Numbered from the whole stretch's first letter, positions 30,878 through 52,384 are shown. The stretch is DNA of 62,529 nucleotides, filler included, from 9 parts of 9 records of this genome joined end to end with filler, not necessarily neighbours in it, one strand, 5' to 3'. The notes: generated by a model not told the origin, from the letters alone. Translations and numbers: made by a program.

Positions 30878-30975
30878 ATGGCAGTGTGGATACCCGGGAT
30901 TGGGATTACATTCGTTCCTGGGCTCACGATCTAAAAGAACAACTTTTACAATATGAAACTGTAAAGACGCATTAA
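30878..30975 (+). CDS. C-terminal fragment of a flavodoxin/HemG-like protein
   Basis: Manual translation ...SVDTRDWDYIRSWAHDL resembles the D.RDW..I..WA flavodoxin terminus; not in ORF track. Confidence 0.45.
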
Positions 30976-31085
30976 ACGCTGCGTCAAATGACTTTTCTTA
31001 CGTATCGTTCCTTAAAATGGAATTGGGGAAAAGAAGAACTGCGTCAAAAATCAATATTTTCCTTATATAGGGATTTGATTTTAAT

Positions 31086-33992
31086 TTATTTTAACAAAAG
31101 CATCTTTCTCACCATTTTATAATGCCCTGTTTTTATTTGATAAAGGTAGGTTCCGCTGGGTTGTGATTTGTTTTTATCATCCAGTCCATTCCATAAAAGT
31201 GTGTATGGTCCCACATTTTGTTTTCTATCCACGAGTGTTTTGATTTTTTGTCCACGGATATTATAGATGGATACATTTACGTGATCAGATACAGGCAGCT
31301 GATAAGAAATCTGTGTGTTGGAATTAAAAGGATTAGGGTGATTTTGTGCCAGGGCATATTCTAACGGTGAAGTAGATGGTTCATCAGCTGAAAAAAGAGA
31401 ATCCCATAGAGACTGAGCAGAATCCGCCGTGTTTTTTAACTGATCCATATTGTTTGCGGCTAACATAGCCAAGCCGACCTGAATGGTTTTCCCGGGGTGT
31501 ATAGAATATGGGCCAAGCCCTATTACATATGAAACATCAGCAGGTCCTGCTTCTGTTAATGTGATACCACCGCTTATCGCTTCCCATTTTTCGTCGTCAG
31601 TAAAGCCATCATACAAACCCCAACCGGGATTGTTGACATCATTATGATCATTGTAAATAGCCCTGAAAGAGATATTGCCCGGACTGAGCATTTTTGAACC
31701 GACAAAAATATTCGGACCCAGGCCAGGATCGTAAATAAAACCAAGATTTCTAGACGCATCAAAACCCGCGATATTGTTCAACGCCGTATTTTCATCTATA
31801 TCCCAGTCGAAATACGCAGCAAAATAAAAGTTATCAAGCGCAATTGTGTTCCTGTTCTCGATTTTAAACCGAAAGAGGATAAAATTATTATGCGGCGGCT
31901 CCTGATTTGCATATGTTTCCTGGGTAATTCCAATGTTCATGGGATTTTCCGCTGCATTATCTTCAAATATAGCACTCGTTTCTTCGTCTGTCAAAGAACC
32001 GGGACTGTGAATCTGTAAATTTCCATTTTCAGCGACTGTAAAATCAGTATCCCATTGAAGATTTTCGCCGATTTTGTCACCTCTGGCTGCATTAGAGAGG
32101 TTATTAAGGCTTGTTCCTAAAATAAGAGCTCCTTCAAACAACACATTAGGCCCGTTGTTATAGGAAAAACCTATACCATTCATATCAATTTCATCACCAT
32201 TGTTTGCGCGACCTATCCTGCCGATATTTGTGACAGATGTGGCAATATTGTTTACGCTGAGGGTGGTGTGTAATGGCAAAACAGTCAGGGTAAAGTGATC
32301 ACTGTCTTTATATTGTCCGGAAGAGATTTGTAAGGTAAAGTGCGCTTTATATCCCCCCGGTGTATTTTCATTTACTTTAATAAGGAATGGAGTTGGGAGA
32401 GGTTTTTCTTCCAGTGTATTAATCGATGTTAGACTCATATCTTTGTTTAAGACAGTTATATAGGCATCATTTATTTCAAGAGATAATTGAACATCATTGG
32501 CCAGCGTCAGATAATTTTTGAGATTAATAAAAATGTCCACTTGTTCTGCTGGTTCTATAATGCCACTGTTATTTTCATCGACAAAATAGAGTTCCGAAAT
32601 TTGGATAGAAGGAGTGACCTCAGTGATGGCCCGGAAGGCGTTCACCCGGCCTTTTCCTAAAAGTCCGGCGTAGGCCGGGTTTTGGGAGTCAATGTTGTCA
32701 GAGGTTAATCGAACCTGCTCAGCTGCCTGAATTCCCAGCCATTCTTTGTTTTGAGCCATTACCAGCGCTACAACTCCAGCCACGAGCGGGCATGACATGG
32801 AGGTACCGCTCAGATAGCCATATTGTGCATCATTTACAGTACTGAGAATATCCAATCCGGGAGCAGCGACATCAACATGCAGGCCATAATTTGAAAAGAG
32901 TGTTTTGACATCATCCTCTCCAGTTGCAGCGACAGAAAGGACTTTGTCATAGGAAGCCGGATATAATGGATTGTTCGTATTTTCATTTCCTGCAGAGGCA
33001 ATTACAATGGCGCCTAATTCTGTTACGTGGTCGATAATGAGTTGGCCGGTGAATGAAAATGCCCCTGAGCCCCAACTACAACTAATAATTTGTGCTCCGT
33101 TTTCCGCAGCATAAAGGATTCCTTCATAACCATAGCTAATTATTTGGTTGCTTGAGGTGCTTGCAGTATTAACAGGCAAAACAGTCGCATTCCAACTTGC
33201 CCCCGCGATTCCTATGGAATTATTTGCCACACCACAGGCTATCCCGGCGGTATGTGTGCCGTGACTGGATATGCTTGATGATGGATCAGGACTGTTTGTA
33301 CCAAAATTCCATCCATGAATATCATCTATATGGCCATTTTGGTCGTCATCTATACCATTCTCAGGAATCTCATTCCTGTTATTCCATATATTATCCGCGA
33401 GATCGGGATGGCTTATATCGGTGCCGCTGTCTACAATGGCAATAATCGTATTTGAACTTTCAGCCCTTATTGAATCCCATGCAGACGGAGCAAAAATATT
33501 TTTCAGATAACTTTGGCGGGTATACAGGGAATCATTTGGCTCACGCAGGAGCTTGAAAAGATATTTTGGCTCCGCATATTCGACAAATGGATTTTTACTC
33601 AACTTTTCAGCGATTTTGATGGGGGATTCTGATCCCTGGTAATGCGCAATGTAGATATGCTCCAGCGATGTGGATAACGTAGATTTGCGCAACGGTTTGG
33701 ATCCTTTAATAAAAGGAGTCAGGTCGGTGATATGGTTGTTTTTTAAAGTCACATCAATGAACGGGATACCTGTCAGGTGATTTTGATTCAGGCGAGTGGT
33801 GGTATTTTGTAGTTTAATTAAAACAACATTGGGCTCATACAAGGAATAGTTCTGAGAATGTTGTAAAGGATTAACGGGCAGGCTTTTGCCTGTTTTGCTG
33901 AAACCAGGAGCTTGCTGGCCTACGATGAAATATAAACAAAAAAAGAATATTTGTTTTTTGAACAAAATCATGGCTGATCCCCAGCCTCTCAC
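31086..33992 (-). CDS. Secreted S8 subtilisin-like protease with C-terminal FlgD-Ig/secretion-tail domain
   Basis: Catalytic triad VDSG, HGTH, GTSMS; C-terminal QNHPNPFN...IYNIRGQ...SGTYLY. Confidence 0.9.
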   Translation of the reverse strand: MRGWGSAMILFKKQIFFFCLYFIVGQQAPGFSKTGKSLPVNPLQHSQNYSLYEPNVVLIKLQNTTTRLNQNHLTGIPFIDVTLKNNHITDLTPFIKGSKPLRKSTLSTSLEHIYIAHYQGSESPIKIAEKLSKNPFVEYAEPKYLFKLLREPNDSLYTRQSYLKNIFAPSAWDSIRAESSNTIIAIVDSGTDISHPDLADNIWNNRNEIPENGIDDDQNGHIDDIHGWNFGTNSPDPSSSISSHGTHTAGIACGVANNSIGIAGASWNATVLPVNTASTSSNQIISYGYEGILYAAENGAQIISCSWGSGAFSFTGQLIIDHVTELGAIVIASAGNENTNNPLYPASYDKVLSVAATGEDDVKTLFSNYGLHVDVAAPGLDILSTVNDAQYGYLSGTSMSCPLVAGVVALVMAQNKEWLGIQAAEQVRLTSDNIDSQNPAYAGLLGKGRVNAFRAITEVTPSIQISELYFVDENNSGIIEPAEQVDIFINLKNYLTLANDVQLSLEINDAYITVLNKDMSLTSINTLEEKPLPTPFLIKVNENTPGGYKAHFTLQISSGQYKDSDHFTLTVLPLHTTLSVNNIATSVTNIGRIGRANNGDEIDMNGIGFSYNNGPNVLFEGALILGTSLNNLSNAARGDKIGENLQWDTDFTVAENGNLQIHSPGSLTDEETSAIFEDNAAENPMNIGITQETYANQEPPHNNFILFRFKIENRNTIALDNFYFAAYFDWDIDENTALNNIAGFDASRNLGFIYDPGLGPNIFVGSKMLSPGNISFRAIYNDHNDVNNPGWGLYDGFTDDEKWEAISGGITLTEAGPADVSYVIGLGPYSIHPGKTIQVGLAMLAANNMDQLKNTADSAQSLWDSLFSADEPSTSPLEYALAQNHPNPFNSNTQISYQLPVSDHVNVSIYNIRGQKIKTLVDRKQNVGPYTLLWNGLDDKNKSQPSGTYLYQIKTGHYKMVRKMLLLK

Positions 33993-34279
33993 GTAATGTT
34001 ACTTTCGAGAAAAAGATCTTTCTGACCCTCTTATAACGAATGAAAACCAATATAGTTCTATTTCTATACAATCTGAATTATTTTTTGTCGAAACAATCAC
34101 GTGCAGAAACAATAGTGTCATTCAGGTAAGTTAAGGATAATCATAAAAGAATCAAGTGTCAAGGATTCGTTGAATAAACAGACCACATAAAGGAGAGTGA
34201 TATCGAATGTTTATCATATTAGCTGGTGGGATAAACATTGATAGCCTGTTTTAATAATAGTACTTTTCCCAAAAACAAA

Positions 34280-34310
34280 AAAAGGCGAACCTCAATGGTC
34301 CGCCTTTTTT
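34280..34310 (-). terminator. Bidirectional-type intrinsic terminator after HMA gene
   Basis: AAAAAGGCG...CGCCTTTTT with flanking A/T runs. Confidence 0.65.
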
Positions 34311-34324
34311 AGAAGGATAATATA

Positions 34325-34735
34325 TTATACACTACCTTTGACTTTTGATTTGCTGACACCGCTACCACAACCGCAATTGAGATGTGCTTCCTGATCCGAG
34401 GTTTTGGATTGCTTAACTTTTTCAACGGCTTTGACCTTTGTGGCTTTGAATCCGGTACTGTTAACAGCTTTTTCAAGTTTTTTATGATCTGATTTTTTGG
34501 TATCATAAACAACAGTGGCATTGTTGTCCGCCAGGATGACTTTTACCTCTTTTACTCCTTCTACCTTTTCAAGTGCTGTTTTGACCTGATGGACGCACCC
34601 TTCACACGTCATGCCTTTAATATCTATTTGTGCTGTTTTTATTTTTTCGGTTTTTGTCTTGTCGCCAGCATGAGTCGCTGAGATCGACGTTAACATGAAT
34701 ATACTCATAACTGCAATACCGAGTAAATTCTTCAT
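34325..34735 (-). CDS. Exported heavy-metal-associated (HMA, MerP/CopZ-like) protein
   Basis: Signal peptide; IKGMTCEGC motif. Confidence 0.85.
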   Translation of the reverse strand: MKNLLGIAVMSIFMLTSISATHAGDKTKTEKIKTAQIDIKGMTCEGCVHQVKTALEKVEGVKEVKVILADNNATVVYDTKKSDHKKLEKAVNSTGFKATKVKAVEKVKQSKTSDQEAHLNCGCGSGVSKSKVKGSV

Positions 34736-34885
34736 AGAGAACCTCCGTGGTTACTTTTATATTATTCAAGACACATATTGATATGGCTTGTTTATTGTTA
34801 TAGCTATCCAACATCAATAAGGGAATTTTTATTTCTGAGTGAAAGTTTAATATACCTTAAATAGTAAGCCAGCATACAAAAATAG

Positions 34886-36535
34886 GTGAAAAATGACATG
34901 AGTGAACCGACCAGAGTTCAGCAAAATAGATTAAAAGACTCGTCCAGCCCATATTTGCTTCAACATGCTGAAAATCCTGTTGATTGGTTTGAATGGGGGC
35001 CTGAAGCGCTGGAAATAGCACGAGAGAAAGGCAAACCGATATTTTTATCTATTGGCTATTCAGCCTGCCATTGGTGTCATGTCATGGCGCACGAGTCTTT
35101 TGAAAATGAAGAAATTGCTGCTCTTATGAATGAGCATTTTATAAATATAAAACTGGATCGAGAAGAGCGCCCTGATTTGGATGAGATTTATATGACAGCC
35201 GTACAAATGCTAACAGGTTCGGGCGGATGGCCAACATCTATCTGGCTCACACCGGAGTTAAAGCCATTTTATGGGGGCACCTATTTTCCACCTGAAGACC
35301 GTTTGGGGATGCCGGGATTTAAACGCGTATTGCTTTCCTTAAGTGAGGCATGGCAATCACAACGCGGAAAGGTTGTCGAGAGCGCAGAAGAAGTAGCCCA
35401 GGGGATTCAAAAATCAGTAAAGGTGCATTCGGCGGCAGGAGATTTGGATGAAGATTTATTGAAAAAGGCATTTGATAATTTAAGGCACTCGTATGATTCC
35501 GCATATGGTGGTTTTAGTGATGCGCCGAAATTTCCTCAAGCCATGCAATTGTCTTTTTTACTTCGATATTATAATAAAACCAAAGAGTCGGTTGCATTGG
35601 AGATGGTAGAGAAAACCCTGGAAAAGATGGCATTAGGCGGCATTTATGATCATTTGGGTGGTGGTTTTCATCGTTATTCCACCGACTCTCACTGGCTGGT
35701 GCCCCATTTTGAAAAAATGCTGTATGACCAGGCTTTGCTGGTACGGTGTTACTCTGAAGCTTTTCAACTGACAAAGAAATCCATTTACAGAGATATCGTC
35801 AGGCACACCCTGGATTATGTCATAAAAAAAATGACCTTAAAGGATGGCGGATTTTATTCTGCCGAAGATGCCGATTCGGAAGGGGAAGAGGGAAAATATT
35901 ATGTCTGGGATTTGGATGAGATAAACGACTTGTTAGGTGAGGAAGCAGCATTATTTTGTGATGTATATGGAGCAACCAAAGATGGTAACTGGGAAGGTAA
36001 AAATATCCTCAATTTGCAGCAGCCTCTGGAGATTATGGGCAGGGATTACGGTCTTGAAACAGAATCCCTGAGTGAAAAACTTTTTTCCATGCGCAATACA
36101 CTTTTAAACACCCGGGAAAAAAGGGTGCGACCGTTTTTGGATGATAAAGCGTTGACAGACTGGAACAGTCTCATGATAACAGCCTTTATTAATGGTTATA
36201 AAATTACCGGAAATTCTGTTTATCTTGAGACGGCTCAAAAAGCAGCTCACTTTATCCAAAAAAAGTTATTTAAAAAGGGAGAACTTGCTCACTCGTTTCG
36301 TAAAAACAGAGTTCATATTAAGGGATTTTTATCTGATTACGCGTTTTTGATATCCGGTTTGATCGATCTGTATGAGGTCACTTTTCAGGTTTCATGGCTC
36401 AAATGGGCTATTGAATTAACAAATAAGGTCATCTCTGATTTTTCCGATCCGGAAGGAGGATTTTATTATAGCCTGGAAAGTTCCGAATTGATCGTAAGGA
36501 GTAAAAATGCCTTTGATCAGGCCCTGCCATCCGGG
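34886..36535 (+). CDS. DUF255 thioredoxin-domain protein (YyaL/SSP411 family), 3'-partial
   Basis: SPYLLQHAENPVDW, GYSACHWCHVM, PHFEKMLYDQA. Confidence 0.9.
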
Positions 36536-46307: not shown

Positions 46308-46494
46308 NNNNNNNNNNNNNNNNNNNNNNNNNNNNNNNNNNNNNNNNNNNNTTAATTAATTAANNNNNNNNNNNNNNNNNNNNNNNNNNNNNNNNNNNNN
46401 NNNNNNNTTTTTGTGGGATTCTTTGGCGCTTGTGGATGTTGAATTAATTATTGCTTTGATTGAAAAAAAGTGGGAACAAACAAAAACGCCCTTG

Positions 46495-46529
46495 AGCGGT
46501 GGAGATAAATTAAATTCATCTCCACCGCT
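46495..46529 (-). terminator. Perfect 12-bp stem-loop downstream of TPR gene
   Basis: AGCGGTGGAGAT...ATCTCCACCGCT; T-rich sequence follows on the minus strand after a short gap. Confidence 0.5.
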
Positions 46530-46583
46530 ATACAGGACGGTTATGTGGAAGGGGGCTCTTTTTTCAGAAATTATTTATGAATT

Positions 46584-48116
46584 TTATACAGGAATTTCTT
46601 CCATTAATTCTTCTGTCTTTTCTATTTCCGATTCACTTTCCAGTTCTTTAAAGGCAGCTAATGCTTTATTTAAGTATTCCATGACCTTATTTTCATTATT
46701 ACATTCACGCCACAGTAATCCCATTTCACGCATGGTTTCCACTTCATTCAGGCGATGCTCAATTTTTCGATTCAATGTCAGGCTTTTCTGCAGATATGTT
46801 TGTGCCAATTCCATGTCTTGCATTGAGCGATAGATGATGCCATAGAGTTTATAAGTGTCTGCAATGCCTTCCTGGCTGTCCATGCGTTCAAAGTATACCA
46901 ATGCTTTATCGCAATAGCCGTTTGCTACTTTAAATTCTGACATTTCCACGGCCACCTCTGCCTGGTGGTAATAGGAAATGCCAATTAAATAGAGATTGTT
47001 TATTTTCTGAGAAAATGAAAGTGATTTTGTATAATACTTGCCGGCCCGTTGCCACTGGCCACTCTTGGCATAGACGAGGCCAAGGTTGTGAAAGGCTTCA
47101 GCCAGGCCCATTTTGCTGCCCACCTTGAGGAAACACTCTATGGCATGGTCACTATAGTCTTTTGCAGCCTTGAGATTTGACATGGTGATGCACAATTCTG
47201 CTCTCTGAAGATAAGTGACAGCCATCTGATGCACATTGTCCGCATTTTTTGCATGCTGTACGGATTTTTCATAACAGGTACCGGCCTGCCGCCATTTTCC
47301 CTGCCGGGCATAAAAGAGTCCCATGTTGTTGTAAACCTCTGACATACCTGTATCGTCCTCTAATTCTTGATAATAGGACAGCGCTTTTGACAAATATGCC
47401 TTTGCTTTTTTATATTTGCCCTGGATATTATAGCAGGCACCCAAGTTGTTGTTTACCTTGGCCAATAATCTGGAATCACCGTTTTGTTCTGCCAGTGTTA
47501 AACATGTGCCAAACCACTCATTAACGTAAGCCCAATTCCCGGTATAAAAGGCGATACTACCCAGGTCGTTGTACAGATGCGCCTGTCCTTCCAGATCCTC
47601 TATGTCCTGATATTCCTTAAGACCCTGTTGATACCATGTTTCTGCCTCATCGAATCGATTCTTGCGAAAAGCCACATCCCCTAATCTTTTGCAGACATCC
47701 GCCTTTTTCTTGTCCAATGTAAGAGATGTTGCAATATTTAAGGCTGATTGAAATCTTTTACTCGCCCCATCCAGATCCCCTAGCAAATAGTGAATCCGGC
47801 CTATTTGCAAATCCACACTGGCGCGTTGTTCCTGTGATGAAAAAAGATTCGGAATAGCCTCGATTTTTGTAATGATATTTTTGATATAGTCTTCCGGAGA
47901 TGTTGACCCAATAACATCAACGAGAGAAAGACCTGAATTGTCCTGCAGGATAATTTTTTTAAACCCTTGTATATCTTTCAGCAGCAGCGTCAATTCCGGT
48001 GTAGATGTTATTTTTACGTCGCTTTGGCACATCTCCATTAGGCTATCTAAAATTGGATCTAGCTGGGAAATGATTTTTTTTGTGTCTATCATATCATCTC
48101 TCTTTATATTTTGCAT
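46584..48116 (-). CDS. Multi-TPR protein (MalT/Rap-like TPR repeats), no recognisable catalytic domain
   Basis: About ten ~40-aa repeats such as VNNNLGACYNIQGKYKKAKAYLSKAL. Confidence 0.85.
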   Translation of the reverse strand: MQNIKRDDMIDTKKIISQLDPILDSLMEMCQSDVKITSTPELTLLLKDIQGFKKIILQDNSGLSLVDVIGSTSPEDYIKNIITKIEAIPNLFSSQEQRASVDLQIGRIHYLLGDLDGASKRFQSALNIATSLTLDKKKADVCKRLGDVAFRKNRFDEAETWYQQGLKEYQDIEDLEGQAHLYNDLGSIAFYTGNWAYVNEWFGTCLTLAEQNGDSRLLAKVNNNLGACYNIQGKYKKAKAYLSKALSYYQELEDDTGMSEVYNNMGLFYARQGKWRQAGTCYEKSVQHAKNADNVHQMAVTYLQRAELCITMSNLKAAKDYSDHAIECFLKVGSKMGLAEAFHNLGLVYAKSGQWQRAGKYYTKSLSFSQKINNLYLIGISYYHQAEVAVEMSEFKVANGYCDKALVYFERMDSQEGIADTYKLYGIIYRSMQDMELAQTYLQKSLTLNRKIEHRLNEVETMREMGLLWRECNNENKVMEYLNKALAAFKELESESEIEKTEELMEEIPV

Positions 48117-48157
48117 AGTTGATATTGAAAACGCGACATTTTACGACACTCCTGGTC

Positions 48158-48804
48158 TCAGTCTTTTCCGATTGAATAGAGAGAAAAATGAGAAATGCTA
48201 AATCGAATCTTTTTCTCCAATTTGTTAAATTTGACTTTTTGGGGTTTACCTTTTTTGGCCTTTTCTTTTTCTTTTTCGCACTCTCTTTTTTGTTGTGCTT
48301 TGTTTTGCCATTTTTTCCCTCATATCTGGCAATGAGTTCCCATTCATTGGTATCCGGATTGTACCATCTCAGAACGACGGGTTCTGTAACACCTATTTTT
48401 TGCAGTTTGTCCCATTTTAACTCAAGAATTGCATTAGGATAAAATGCCGTACCACTTGGCCCAAATTCAAATGTTAGTGAACCATCATCTAACAGTTGCA
48501 CATTTCCAAAGAGTTCTACAAGGTCCTTGTGGTTCATCGATTTTTTACCGACTTTTAGTTTAAAGAGCTTGTCAATTTTTAAATCCCCACCTTTATCCCA
48601 TTTAATGGCACGATTAGCTCCCCAGCGCTTTTGCTGTTGTTTGGATTTTTTAGCCAGAGATGTTGGATTGGTGCTATCAGTACTCTGAATTTGTTCTGTG
48701 TTGTCGATTGTTGGCTCTGTGGGTGATTGAAATTTTGAACAATTCCAAATACCAATGATAAATAACAACGTAACACCGGTAACAAACCATTTCATAGCTT
48801 TCAT
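48158..48804 (-). CDS. Hypothetical lipoprotein, frameshifted in A-rich tract near 48250-48290
   Basis: Signal peptide ending IWNC; GGGAGG RBS; FGPSGTAF...LRWYNP; alternative frame gives KKIRFSISHFSLYSIGKD* ending at 48158, removing the overlap with the TPR gene. Confidence 0.7.
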
Positions 48805-49039
48805 GAGATCCCTCCCTTAGTTTGATCGAAAGTATTATTGTAAGTTTAAACAGCACTGATACAAAATACAAAAACGGTATTTGCCACTAATTGCAGGCAG
48901 TAAAAGAAAGAACGTCCCCAAGCCATTATCAGTTTTCACTACGGTCTTCTACCTCGTAGACTCGGAGTAAACCAATAAAAAAAATATCTTTTTTTAATAT
49001 GACGAACCATCCAATCCATTGTTAATAAAATAAAAATGA

Positions 49040-49610
49040 AAAAGGTCAGTCATAACCACAAGGCCGATGTCTTTTATGGTGATGGATTATTAAAAAACTG
49101 CGACCTTGAAAAAAATGTGAATGTTAAAAAGTATATCATCAAATAGATGCGAAATCACAGATGCCGGATCCTGGAATCCGAACGGATGAATCCAATGCGC
49201 CTTATTACAAGACAGCCGATGGTTCCATCCCTATTTTGGAATAATTCATAACAGGCAAATACGGTTTTGTGCAAACCACCAAAGCGGGAGTCTTTCTTAA
49301 AGGAGGTACTGGGAGAGACTCCCGCCAAAAAAATGATTTAAATTCATGAGTGTTTTAAAAAGTGACGCAAAATCAAGTTTGCCTGAATCCGGAAGTAAAT
49401 GATTGAGTTCCAAATTGCTTTCCATGCTCTATAGAGTAAACTCGGCCTTTTTCTGAAAATACATTGACAGAAAAAGGCTGAATGAAAAAAACCACCGAGG
49501 CGGGAGTCCTTCAGAAAGATGGTACCGGGAAAGACTCCCGCCGAAAAGAAAACGGGAAATAATCATTATTATTGTCTTGATAAATGACGCGAAATCCAAG
49601 TTGCCTAATC
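49040..49610. repeat. Three ~220-nt periodic non-coding units (hairpin + A-rich spacer + conserved 25-nt motif)
   Basis: Motif GAYGCRAAATC-N5-TGCC-N2-3-ATC at 49146, 49364, 49586; hairpin GCGGGAGTC...GACTCCCGC at 49284-49325 and 49500-49541; different long hairpin at about 49042-49107. Confidence 0.8.
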
Positions 49611-49656
49611 AATGATAGAGTGTCGTTGAGTGGTAGTGTGTTTCACTTGTTCATTC

Positions 49657-49672
49657 AGCAAGCTTTGTGCCA
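49657..49672 (-). promoter_or_regulatory. Sigma54 (-24/-12) promoter
   Basis: Minus strand TGGCACAAAGCTTGCT = TGGCAC-N5-TTGCT, exact GG-N10-GC spacing. Confidence 0.75.
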
Positions 49673-49801
49673 ATACAGTTTTAAAAGGATATTTTATTGG
49701 AAAAATTGTTTGTTTATAATAGAGTTAAGTCGTTTAATGAAGTGGAGCTATGGATGTTTCAAAGGTAAATAGCTCTCATCAGGTATTTTTTTAATAAAAA
49801 A

Positions 49802-49841
49802 CATGTCCCTCTAAAGGGACATGCGGGGCCAGGATGGGACA
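49802..49841. promoter_or_regulatory. Putative enhancer-binding-protein site (UAS 1)
   Basis: CATGTCCC-N6-GGGACATG palindrome plus a second GGGACA half-site 20 bp on; 130-170 bp upstream of the sigma54 site. Confidence 0.6.
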
Positions 49842-50110
49842 AAATGAATATCTGTACCGGAATATCTATTGGAAAATAAGTTTTATGATATCTTTTGAGT
49901 GGTCGACATTTGAACTGTGGCTGCCTTTCAGTTAAGTAATAGTTATGTTCACCACACTGTGGAAAATAAACAGGTGGCATACGTTGAAAACGCCATCACA
50001 AATATTGATTTTAGGCCAACGGCAAGCGTACAGAATTTGATCTAGCGTAGTGTCATTTGTTGTCCTGTGCTCATCGGTAATGTCGTAACAGGATAATTCG
50101 AGGGTACAAT

Positions 50111-50488
50111 ATGAAAATACTCGTAATTGACGATGATGGTATGATACGGTTTGCCATCAGGGCTGTTTTGGGCGCGAAAGGGCATTGAATATTACAGGCC
50201 AGGAATGGAAGAGAAGGATTCGATCTGGCCTGCAGAGAAAGACCGAATTTAATCCTGCTGGATGTCCTGATGCCCGGTTGAAGCGCCATAGAAAGATGTA
50301 TAAAATTTGTACAGAATCTCCACACACGCTCCATTCCTGTTTTTATGGTAACAAACGTCAGCCAAATTGCAGAGATCGATCTGGCTTTTAATCGCGGAGC
50401 TGATGATTATATCAGCAAACCATTTAATTTGGCAGAATTACATGACATGCTGTTACAACGATATAGAAAGCTAAAAGGTGTTAGGTGA
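50111..50488 (+). pseudogene. Single-domain response regulator (receiver) with two in-frame TGA codons
   Basis: MKILVIDDD...KGH*ILQA...LILLDVLMPG*SAI...MVT...GADDYISKPF; TGA at 50186 and 50279; no frameshift. Confidence 0.8.
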
Positions 50489-50626
50489 ATTATTGTTTTT
50501 TTATTCGACGAATGTGGAAAGGTATGGATTCAATTCAAGAAAAATGTGTGACAATGGCGATTTATAACATTATGGTTAATTAACAACCAGTTTTTTGCTT
50601 ATTACTTAAAAATCGGTAAAATGTGT

Positions 50627-50664
50627 TGTCCCAAAGGCAGGACAGTATCAAAAAGAATGGGACA
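50627..50664. promoter_or_regulatory. Putative enhancer-binding-protein site (UAS 2)
   Basis: TGTCCC-N6-AGGACA plus ATGGGACA with the same 20-bp spacing as UAS 1. Confidence 0.55.
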
Positions 50665-51349
50665 GAACCGGAATTTTATACAAAATAAATTAAATTAAAG
50701 GCATTCCTTTTTGCCGGATTGGAGTTAATTGAACTATAAACTGCTAATTATACAGGATCTCTCCGACCACCTGCTGGCTGGTGTTTATATGTCCCTATAA
50801 CTATTTTTATTAAGACTTGCGAGATTTTAGAGCGGATAGTTCGCTGTAAGTCTATATTAATTAATATAATGAAATTGTGTTTGTTAGTCGAATTTATCGT
50901 TTACATACTACAGCTCTGAACAGAACATTTCGTATATTGTATTTGAATACCATTATTAACAAAATGGTACTTTTGTGGATTGTGTACAAGGGATGATAAC
51001 AGATTCTGGCATAATGATTGTATATGAATAATAAAGTTGCGAATTCAATTTTACACTGAATTCGCTTTAATAAGAGGATGTCACACCATTCATCTGGTAT
51101 TCATATAGTATTTACGTTTTTCATTCTCGGGGCTTCAGGTATAAAATCCTCTTTGTATGCAGAAAGTGGCAGCTAAATATTTTATTTACCACCTTGATGA
51201 GTTAACAATTTGTACATTTTTAGGCAAAATTTTCGTTCGATCTCTCATTGTTTTCTAAAATATCGCGTTTTTTAAGGATCAAAGTAATTCAAGAGAGAAA
51301 TCCACTATCGCAATAACACACATTATTATAGATTTCAAGAGGTGTATTT

Positions 51350-51461
51350 ATGAAAATACTGGTGGTTGATGATGACCGTAGCATTCGATTTGTTATTAAA
51401 AATATTTTCACATCAAAGGGGCATAATGTCATAGAAGCGTCAAGCGGGGAAGAGGGCGTCG
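51350..51461 (+). CDS. Response regulator receiver protein, 3'-partial
   Basis: GAGGTG RBS; MKILVVDDDRSIRFVIKNIFTSKGHNVIEASSGEEGV; not in ORF track. Confidence 0.8.
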
Positions 51462-51561
51462 NNNNNNNNNNNNNNNNNNNNNNNNNNNNNNNNNNNNNNN
51501 NNNNNTTAATTAATTAANNNNNNNNNNNNNNNNNNNNNNNNNNNNNNNNNNNNNNNNNNNN

Positions 51562-52384
51562 GCAGGATGGCCCCTTCACCGCGAAGCGTTTCGGTCACCA
51601 ATGCACGCGAGGCACCGGCGATATACAGCGTCGTCGGGTGAAACTGCATCATCTCCATGTCCTGCAGCACCGCCCCCGCCCGCCAGGCCATGGCCAGTCC
51701 GTCCGCAGTCGCGCATTCGGGATTAGTGGTTTCGCGGTACAGCCGGCCCGCCCCGCCGGTGGCTAAAATAGTCGCTCCCGCCCAGAGAATCTGCAACTGC
51801 CCGCCGGGACGATAGCCGATCACACCGACGCATTCGTTTTTATCGCCGGCCAGCAAATCAACCGTAAAGTAGTTCTCGATCATATTGATGTTGGGTGTTT
51901 CGCGGACTTTGCGCACCAGTGTTTCGGCGATGCCGCGGCCGGTCGAATCGCCGTGAGCGTGAACGACCCGGGCGTGGCTGTGTCCGCCTTCCAGCGAGAT
52001 ATCCATGTGCCCGTCGGTGCGGTCGAAATCAGTGCCCCACTCGGCCAGTTGATTAATCAGGGCCGGCCCTTCCTTGACGACAAGATCGACAATCTTCGGA
52101 TCGCCGATGCCGCAGCCGGTTTTGATGGTATCTTCAATATGCGATTCAAAGCTGTCAGCCGCGTCCAGCACCGACGCGATACCGCCCTGTGCGTTCCAGG
52201 TGTTGCTGTCGGAAAAGGTGCCTTTGCACACCAATGTCACATTGCAGGTTTGTGCCGCTTCCAGTGCGGCCCGCAGGCCTGCAATCCCGGAGCCGATGAC
52301 CAGACAGTCCGTGAAGGACTGCTGCATCGAAACAGTATTGACCGGTACCAAATATCGTCGAGCATCTGCCTGTCTTGCGGGCAT
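51562..52384 (-). CDS. nadB: L-aspartate oxidase, 3'-partial
   Basis: GSGIAGL, SNTWNAQGGIA, EGGHSHARVVHA, LATGGAG, QFHPT, TETLRGEGA. Confidence 0.88.

Follow-up and report, generated by a model that had tools for sequence, protein, structure and literature searches.

An ORF-free stretch of the minus strand, lying between a perfect sigma-54 promoter and a lipoprotein-like gene of an uncultured sediment bacterium from the Fibrobacteres-Chlorobi-Bacteroidetes (FCB) group, contains three diverged copies of a ~220-nt folding unit in tandem. We read this stretch as the cis-acting structured 5' leader of a sigma-54 lipoprotein-TPR(-GAF histidine kinase) operon, enlarged by tandem triplication, and give this reading a probability of about 0.45. 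An earlier note on the same DNA had named an sRNA array, a protein sponge and a tandem cis-regulatory leader side by side; the cis leader fits best, since the downstream module is driven by sigma-54 in relatives, and the array and the sponge find no support in the form given there: the second and third units have no sigma-54 site of their own, and canonical terminators are absent from the units.

Genomic setting and sigma-54 promoter

The window, by which we mean the whole 62.5-kb stretch analysed (1-62529), consists of nine metagenome contigs joined by linkers of the form N44-TTAATTAATTAA-N44, with G+C contents from 38% to 56%. The contig that carries the leader (46408-51461, 5,054 bp, 38% G+C) resembles only contig 30878-36535 in its tetranucleotide make-up (r = 0.94), and the nine-contig "genome" is probably a mixed bin. 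The entire leader contig is contained in a 6,627-nt contig of run X1, which has one extra base after 48271 and another after 49031; run X1 is probably the source sample. About 2.2 kb of the 5 kb of the leader contig are non-coding, and ~860 nt between two response-regulator genes (50489-51349) have neither an ORF nor an Rfam match.

The sigma-54 -24/-12 box TGGCACAAAGCTTGC (49672-49658, minus strand) carries all 10 specified bases of TGGCAC-N5-TTGC and is the sole zero-mismatch match to this pattern in the window, so that a site previously described as near-consensus is in fact perfect. With up to one mismatch, four matches occur in the window, about as many as in shuffles. On the minus strand between 48780 and 49900 the box is the only site scoring at least 7/10, and no second sigma-54 site at that score was found there for the second and third repeat units (B and C). 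A degenerate second box in these two units was looked for by eye and dropped, as were sigma-70 or Bacteroidetes-type promoters over the repeated motif described below.

Given the usual 12-nt spacing, transcription is predicted to start near 49646. From this position to the ATG at 48804 the leader measures ~842 nt without an ORF, or 854 nt when counted from behind the sigma-54 site. A sigma-70-like site scoring 9/12 at 49025-48996, between the third unit (C) and the lipoprotein gene, could be the operon's own promoter and counts against the leader reading.

Upstream of the promoter, a 7-bp inverted repeat found by eye (GAGCTAT-N17-ATAGCTC, 49745-49775) could serve as an activator site; its centre and the inferred start are ~114 nt apart. 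A canonical terminator on the minus strand (49824-49801), with a 10-bp stem followed by U6, precedes the sigma-54 box by 130 nt, has no ORF before it and could belong to another small RNA. Run X2 has a 151-nt contig with 98% likeness to 49747-49897. A CheY-like receiver-only gene on the plus strand (50111-50488) has two in-frame TGA codons (50186-50188 and 50279-50281) and no frameshift, and is probably a pseudogene; recoding of TGA was dropped as unlikely because the two neighbouring genes, with 750 codons, contain no in-frame TGA. Another response-regulator gene starts at 51350 and runs off the contig, leaving 37 receiver-domain residues (51350-51460; Pfam Response_reg, E 1.4e-5, below the cut-off).

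Three homologous folding units

Unit A occupies 49430..49650, unit B 49212..49429 and unit C, the most diverged, 48990..49211, all on the minus strand. Over their ~220 nt, A and B are 61% alike and A and C 51% alike; the units are, by this likeness, old copies of one module, and the three structured repeat units claimed earlier hold up as homologous folding units, though only 51-61% alike. Tandem Repeats Finder did not call the 220-nt period. Each unit contains, in order, the motif GGCA-N5-GATTTYGCRTC, a GC-rich 14-bp hairpin, the sequence GGUGGUU and a second hairpin.

The motif copies lie on the minus strand at 49586..49605 (copy A, GGCAACTTGGATTTCGCGTC), 49364..49383 (copy B) and 49146..49165 (copy C), spaced by 222 (A-B) and 218 (B-C), in agreement with the positions and spacings reported before. 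All three match without a mismatch, and elsewhere in the window no match occurs even at two or fewer mismatches. The 11-mer GATTTYGCRTC alone occurs four times against 0.37 expected, a count reached by none of 100 shuffles. Whether the motif is paired varies from fold to fold.

The hairpin of unit A (49499..49542, minus strand) has 14 bp and a 16-nt loop, and that of unit B (49283..49326, minus strand) has 14 bp with one mismatch; the 59-nt stretches around them are 83% alike, confirming the two as homologues. The third hairpin (49062..49105, minus strand), which had been said to differ, aligns column by column with the other two and is a diverged homologue by this alignment. Of its 14 pairs 12 are kept; among these 12, two have changed on either side (G-C to C-G and C-G to U-A) and three on one side only, two as new G-U pairs and one as a G-U turned A-U. 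Across the units 39 of 42 cells of the 14-bp hairpin pair, and four cells are G-U on the minus strand, which would be A-C on the plus strand. With only three sequences the hairpin alone is not significant, 54 of 500 shuffles doing equally well.

For the whole units, RNAalifold gives a consensus of five helices and 45 pairs, in which 85.8% of cells pair and 14 pairs are changed on both sides. The covariation is that of three paralogues, and these figures are inflated by deriving the structure from the very sequences on which it is scored. None of 500 shuffles reaches the real value, and slid controls pair 35-49% of cells. In energy the consensus reaches -30.9 kcal/mol on the minus strand versus -22.9 kcal/mol on the plus strand. 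Helix 1 of the consensus, which pairs the 5' end with the motif, was set aside as weak and not supported by single folds. The entire leader folds beyond shuffles on both strands (z -3.9 on the minus and -4.06 on the plus strand), and this equality of the plus strand counts against the leader reading.

On the 3' side of hairpin A, after the two bases UC, come GGUGG and then U7 (49485..49496, minus strand), and GGUGGUU-like sequence follows all three hairpins. The further hairpin noted at 49445-49478 was recovered and maps to 49442..49481 on the minus strand, as the A/U-rich 3' hairpin of unit A, with counterparts predicted in units B and C. An intrinsic terminator was taken to be a GC-rich stem whose U run begins within 0-2 nt of its end. 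The scan for such sites detected the one at 49824-49801 on the same strand but none of the three unit hairpins, since stem and U run are set apart there; at hairpin A, U7 starts 7 nt after the stem. At the other end of the leader, the pyrimidine run UUCUUUCUUUU (48902..48912, minus strand) is predicted, in minimum-free-energy folds only, to pair with the lipoprotein gene's Shine-Dalgarno region, AAGGGAGGGAU (48808..48818, minus strand), and in these folds both this region and the start codon are paired.

Several other readings of the leader's elements were weighed by eye and dropped: a pseudoknot between loop and flank (ACCAUC with GGUGGU), in which the 2-nt linker cannot span the 14-bp stem; a likeness of the 5' arm of the hairpin to the RfaH ops element; and T-box or ANTAR-type motifs.

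That the earlier note recognised no riboswitch or sRNA family in the leader agrees with the Rfam check: Rfam 15 at gathering scores gives no match in the window, and at E up to 10 the interval 48000-52000 yields just two chance rows, both outside the leader. A covariance model of the unit core, R1, which finds unit A with an E-value of 1.2e-23 by construction, returned only the three units from the window and 22 loci, with nothing at E below 1 in L001, L003, L005 and L018-L036. Across 151 genomes it gave one match at chance level (E 0.0095), a U-run/hairpin/U-run terminator after a gene. An exact-pattern search for the hairpin followed by GGUGG retrieved no stretch among the genome contigs and none among the metagenome contigs. 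The units are not a dispersed MITE or REP element either, as no other copy occurs in the window or in the contigs of run X1, in which 48774-49618 is covered by the single 6,627-nt contig at a flat depth of 33.2.

The downstream operon and leaders in relatives

The lipoprotein-like gene was called at 48094..48804 (minus strand), and its true C-terminus (...IRFSISHFSLYSIGKD) lies in another frame, with an end near 48158. This out-of-frame C-terminus matches the homologue in L003, which confirms a 1-base assembly indel at 48271; the extra base of the run X1 contig after that position falls within the frameshifted gene. The L003 homologue shares 30% identity (E 2e-22), and a word search with the lipoprotein P0001 scored 387 candidates, none at E 0.001. 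The TPR protein gene follows at 46584..48092 on the minus strand, its true start being Met9 of the called ORF. The TPR protein has eight clear relatives (E 1e-91 to 1e-194, ~427 aa), the closest being P0003 (73% identity), with P0005, P0006 and P0010 also near, and five metagenome loci were recovered.

In L003 and L004 the order is TGGCATAGCAATTGC, a 609-nt ORF-free leader, lipoprotein, TPR protein and GAF-HisKA-HATPase kinase, and in L001 and L002 TGGTACGATGGTTGC is followed by 674 nt leading directly to the TPR gene. A profile of the TPR family also finds distant relatives, the best at E 3e-55. A sample of 401 genomes spanning the phylum of a Saprospiraceae MAG has such relatives in 17, and a set of 277 genomes from one order has them in 27. 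Among 21 modules in 19 fetched regions, 14 have a lipoprotein ORF of 179-239 aa directly upstream of the TPR gene and several have a GAF kinase 3' of it. A sigma-54 site of at least 8/10 precedes the first gene in 10 of the 21 modules, which makes sigma-54 control a property of the lipoprotein-TPR module. Over 339 kb, 10 of the 15 sites scoring at least 9/10 fall within the searched stretches upstream of these TPR genes. In eight modules the distance from the site to the gene is short (30, 50, 53, 69, 76, 82, 98 and 98 nt), and in two it is 492 and 558 nt. Long leaders behind the sigma-54 site are common to all three lineages of the window's clade, with 854 nt in the window, 674 nt in L001 and 609 nt in L003. 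A very long leader is a trait of this clade and a few others. As a separate feature of the family, L024 and L027 contain three TPR-family genes in tandem, mostly with their own lipoprotein ORF before each.

The tandem build is narrower in its distribution than the long leader. It was found in neither L001 nor L003, the two related lineages fetched; together with the empty R1 search at E below 1, this indicates that the three-unit architecture is not conserved even within the clade. Beyond the promoter, MAFFT does not align the leaders meaningfully between lineages, and blastn of the leader against the fetched loci returns a single 21-nt motif match, to L001. Here the 11-mer GATTTCGCATC occurs once, in the leader shared by L001 and L002, 55 nt after the -12 element compared to 61 nt in the window; by our own estimate the chance of such a recurrence in 660 nt is ~6e-4. 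The L001 copy lies in a region that folds worse than shuffles (z +2.33), and L003 has, by eye, a weak look-alike only. Comparing L001 with L002 is uninformative because they differ at just 1 of 793 leader bases. Folding is uneven among leaders (z -3.9 in the window, -0.31 in L001, -2.54 in L003, -3.14 in L026 and -2.05 in L031), which counts against the leader reading.

A 350-nt contig of run X3, labelled a marine sediment metagenome, is 96% alike over 49436-49781 (14 other letters and 1 gap), and three contigs of the same run on the TPR gene are ~89% alike (13/122, 18/157 and 28/268 differing). If these X3 contigs represent one organism, the promoter and unit A would be under tighter constraint than coding DNA.

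Some leaders in relatives show features of their own. At L026:245-790 a 558-nt sigma-54 leader, unrelated in sequence and strongly folded (z -3.14), contains three copies of GCGAAGCCAU. In L001 a perfect sigma-54 box on the minus strand, TGGCATTTGATTTGC (1430-1444), points toward a TonB-dependent receptor gene and forms a divergent pair with the box of the TPR leader (1909-1923). Directly before the lipoprotein gene of L003, the stretch 1000-1075 offers alternative pairings (AUCCC/GGGAU versus GGGGAU/AUCCCC) as well as GGGGUGCUUUU, and looks, from these predicted pairings, like an attenuator.

Mechanism, alternatives and significance

In the leader reading, sigma-54 RNA polymerase, presumably with an NtrC-type activator, would start near 49646 and transcribe ~842 nt before the first start codon, with read-through into the operon. 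The leader would have grown by an old tandem triplication of a module that keeps the 11-nt GAUUUYGCRUC, presumably unpaired, a U-rich tract, the 14-bp hairpin with GGUGGUU and the second, A/U-rich hairpin. We infer that these features act after initiation. The hairpins may serve as barriers to RNA polymerase or RNases, and a ~160-nt RNA from the 5' end might be released at hairpin A and its U7 run; a protein or an RNA would recognise the sequence of the 11-nt motif, and the pyrimidine run near the 3' end of the leader (48912-48902) would occlude the ribosome-binding site.

The same transcript might instead act in trans, as one or several stable sRNAs or as a long RNA titrating a protein or an RNA through its three motifs, which we consider possible but rather unlikely. 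Candidates would be unit A up to hairpin A and U7 (~160 nt) or units separated by RNase, the lipoprotein operon being read from its own promoter or by read-through only. An unpaired region, U-rich tract and strong hairpin give each unit the shape of an sRNA, and a U7 run after hairpin A, a short, presumably unpaired motif in three copies on one RNA and a sigma-70-like site between unit C and the gene would all suit this explanation, for which the tandem sigma-54 Pxr paralogues of Cystobacter offer a precedent (PMC5568312). It is at odds with the lack of a sigma-54 site at units B and C and with the terminator scan, which none of the three hairpins passes and which found the canonical terminator at 49824-49801 on the same strand. 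It also sits badly with the relatives, in which the sigma-54 site is the operon's own promoter, and with the absence of the units from the rest of the window, the 22 loci and the 151 genomes, save for the one chance-level match. The four neighbouring genes were dropped as targets: pairing of their start regions with the motif regions and the 5' part of unit A (-11.5 to -24.7 kcal/mol) does not go beyond what shuffles of motif A give (mean -15.4, sd 3.2, lowest -32.4 kcal/mol). The units could also be a neutral spacer, that is, a leader segment twice duplicated by slippage or recombination and slowly decaying, with non-functional units whose hairpins have not yet eroded. This we regard as unlikely, even if the tandem build is specific to one lineage, the units are 51-61% alike with two broken pairs in unit C, and leaders cannot be aligned between lineages. 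The contig, moreover, is unusually rich in ORF-free DNA and has a response-regulator gene with two in-frame stops, which together suggest relaxed selection in the region. Decay alone would hardly leave conservation within the units concentrated in the motif and in stem pairing, with two of the 12 pairs kept in unit C restored by both-sided change, nor preserve the motif's offset in a lineage with just 48% identity in the TPR protein. Long leaders in all three lineages of the clade and the X3 contigs, more alike over the promoter and unit A than over coding DNA, speak against it as well.

Two further explanations leave RNA structure aside. The 10-14-bp inverted repeats and the 11-bp motif could be DNA sites for a regulator, acting as a roadblock or in an enhancer-like way with ~220-bp phasing; the motif is conserved in sequence without covarying, its L001 copy lies in the region that folds worse than shuffles (z +2.33), and a spacing of 218-222 bp is, by our arithmetic, close to 21 helical turns. 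We hold this explanation very improbable, however. A DNA palindrome, or the plus strand, would have A-C mismatches at the four stem cells where the minus strand has G-U; minus-strand folding of the consensus is favoured by 8 kcal/mol; and a sigma-54 promoter normally has its activator sites on the upstream rather than the downstream side. Still less credible, and barely worth entertaining, is that the units descend from a small ORF or a repeat protein and have since decayed. The variable positions of the motif do coincide with third codon positions of GAT-TTY-GCR-TCN, read as D-F-A-S, and an open frame of 59 codons runs through unit A. This frame of the motif contains stops in units B and C, however, and substitutions by codon phase (15/14/16 for A vs B, 18/20/18 for A vs C) show no 3-base periodicity. 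The A-B spacing of 222 is a multiple of 3, whereas the B-C spacing of 218 is not, and none of eight leader frames exceeds the Pfam threshold, the single weak row (E 0.038) being below the cut-off; the D-F-A-S reading was rejected on the stops, the periodicity and the Pfam result. No frame between 48805 and 49672 exceeds 72 aa from stop to stop, in line with the earlier statement that no long ORF separates the lipoprotein start from the sigma-54 site.

Among known systems, Pxr of the Myxococcales is the nearest analogue in form: it has a sigma-54 promoter, lies beside a response-regulator gene and forms several stem-loops, and in Cystobacter up to three diverged tandem paralogues, 14-23% apart, each have their own sigma-54 promoter, the pxr coding region of M. 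xanthus measuring 108 nt (PMC5568312). Unlike Pxr as described there, the present leader has one promoter, at the first unit only, units of ~220 nt, a position directly ahead of an operon and no Rfam match. CrcZ and CrcY of Pseudomonas are long non-coding sponge RNAs with a sigma-54 promoter and a short unpaired motif that is repeated, whereas the motif here is GAUUUYGCRUC rather than an A-rich Hfq/Crc site, occurs in three copies only and again has no Rfam match. The Qrr sRNAs of Vibrio are likewise sigma-54-dependent, several and homologous, and under a response-regulator activator. Their genes are dispersed, ~100 nt long, each with its own promoter and canonical terminator, in contrast to the one promoter serving three joined units without canonical terminators here. 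Long structured 5' leaders with attenuators or helices that occlude the ribosome-binding site resemble the present one in lying between promoter and gene, in having stable hairpins and in the Shine-Dalgarno pairing that is predicted here; it differs from them in matching no ligand- or antiterminator-binding family in Rfam and in its unusual repeat build. A narrow search of the literature, which is not proof of absence, found nothing on sigma-54 leaders or sRNAs in Ignavibacteria-like bacteria.

Taken at its widest, the leader could represent an undescribed class of modular sigma-54 regulatory RNAs in FCB sediment bacteria, whose three ~220-nt domains with the same 11-nt motif would both gate an envelope-signalling operon and act in trans as sRNAs or a sponge; we think this quite improbable. 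What we see resembles a regulatory leader peculiar to one lineage more than a new RNA family of wide occurrence, and the value of the finding is limited in that the repeat build is seen in one lineage only and the host is uncultured. Control of sigma-54 regulons is usually placed at initiation and assigned to activator ATPases. A clade with leaders of 600-850 nt, compared to 30-100 nt in relatives, points to a layer of control after initiation on an envelope-signalling module, and the conserved sigma-54-lipoprotein-TPR-GAF kinase module defined here provides a frame in which such leaders can be tested.
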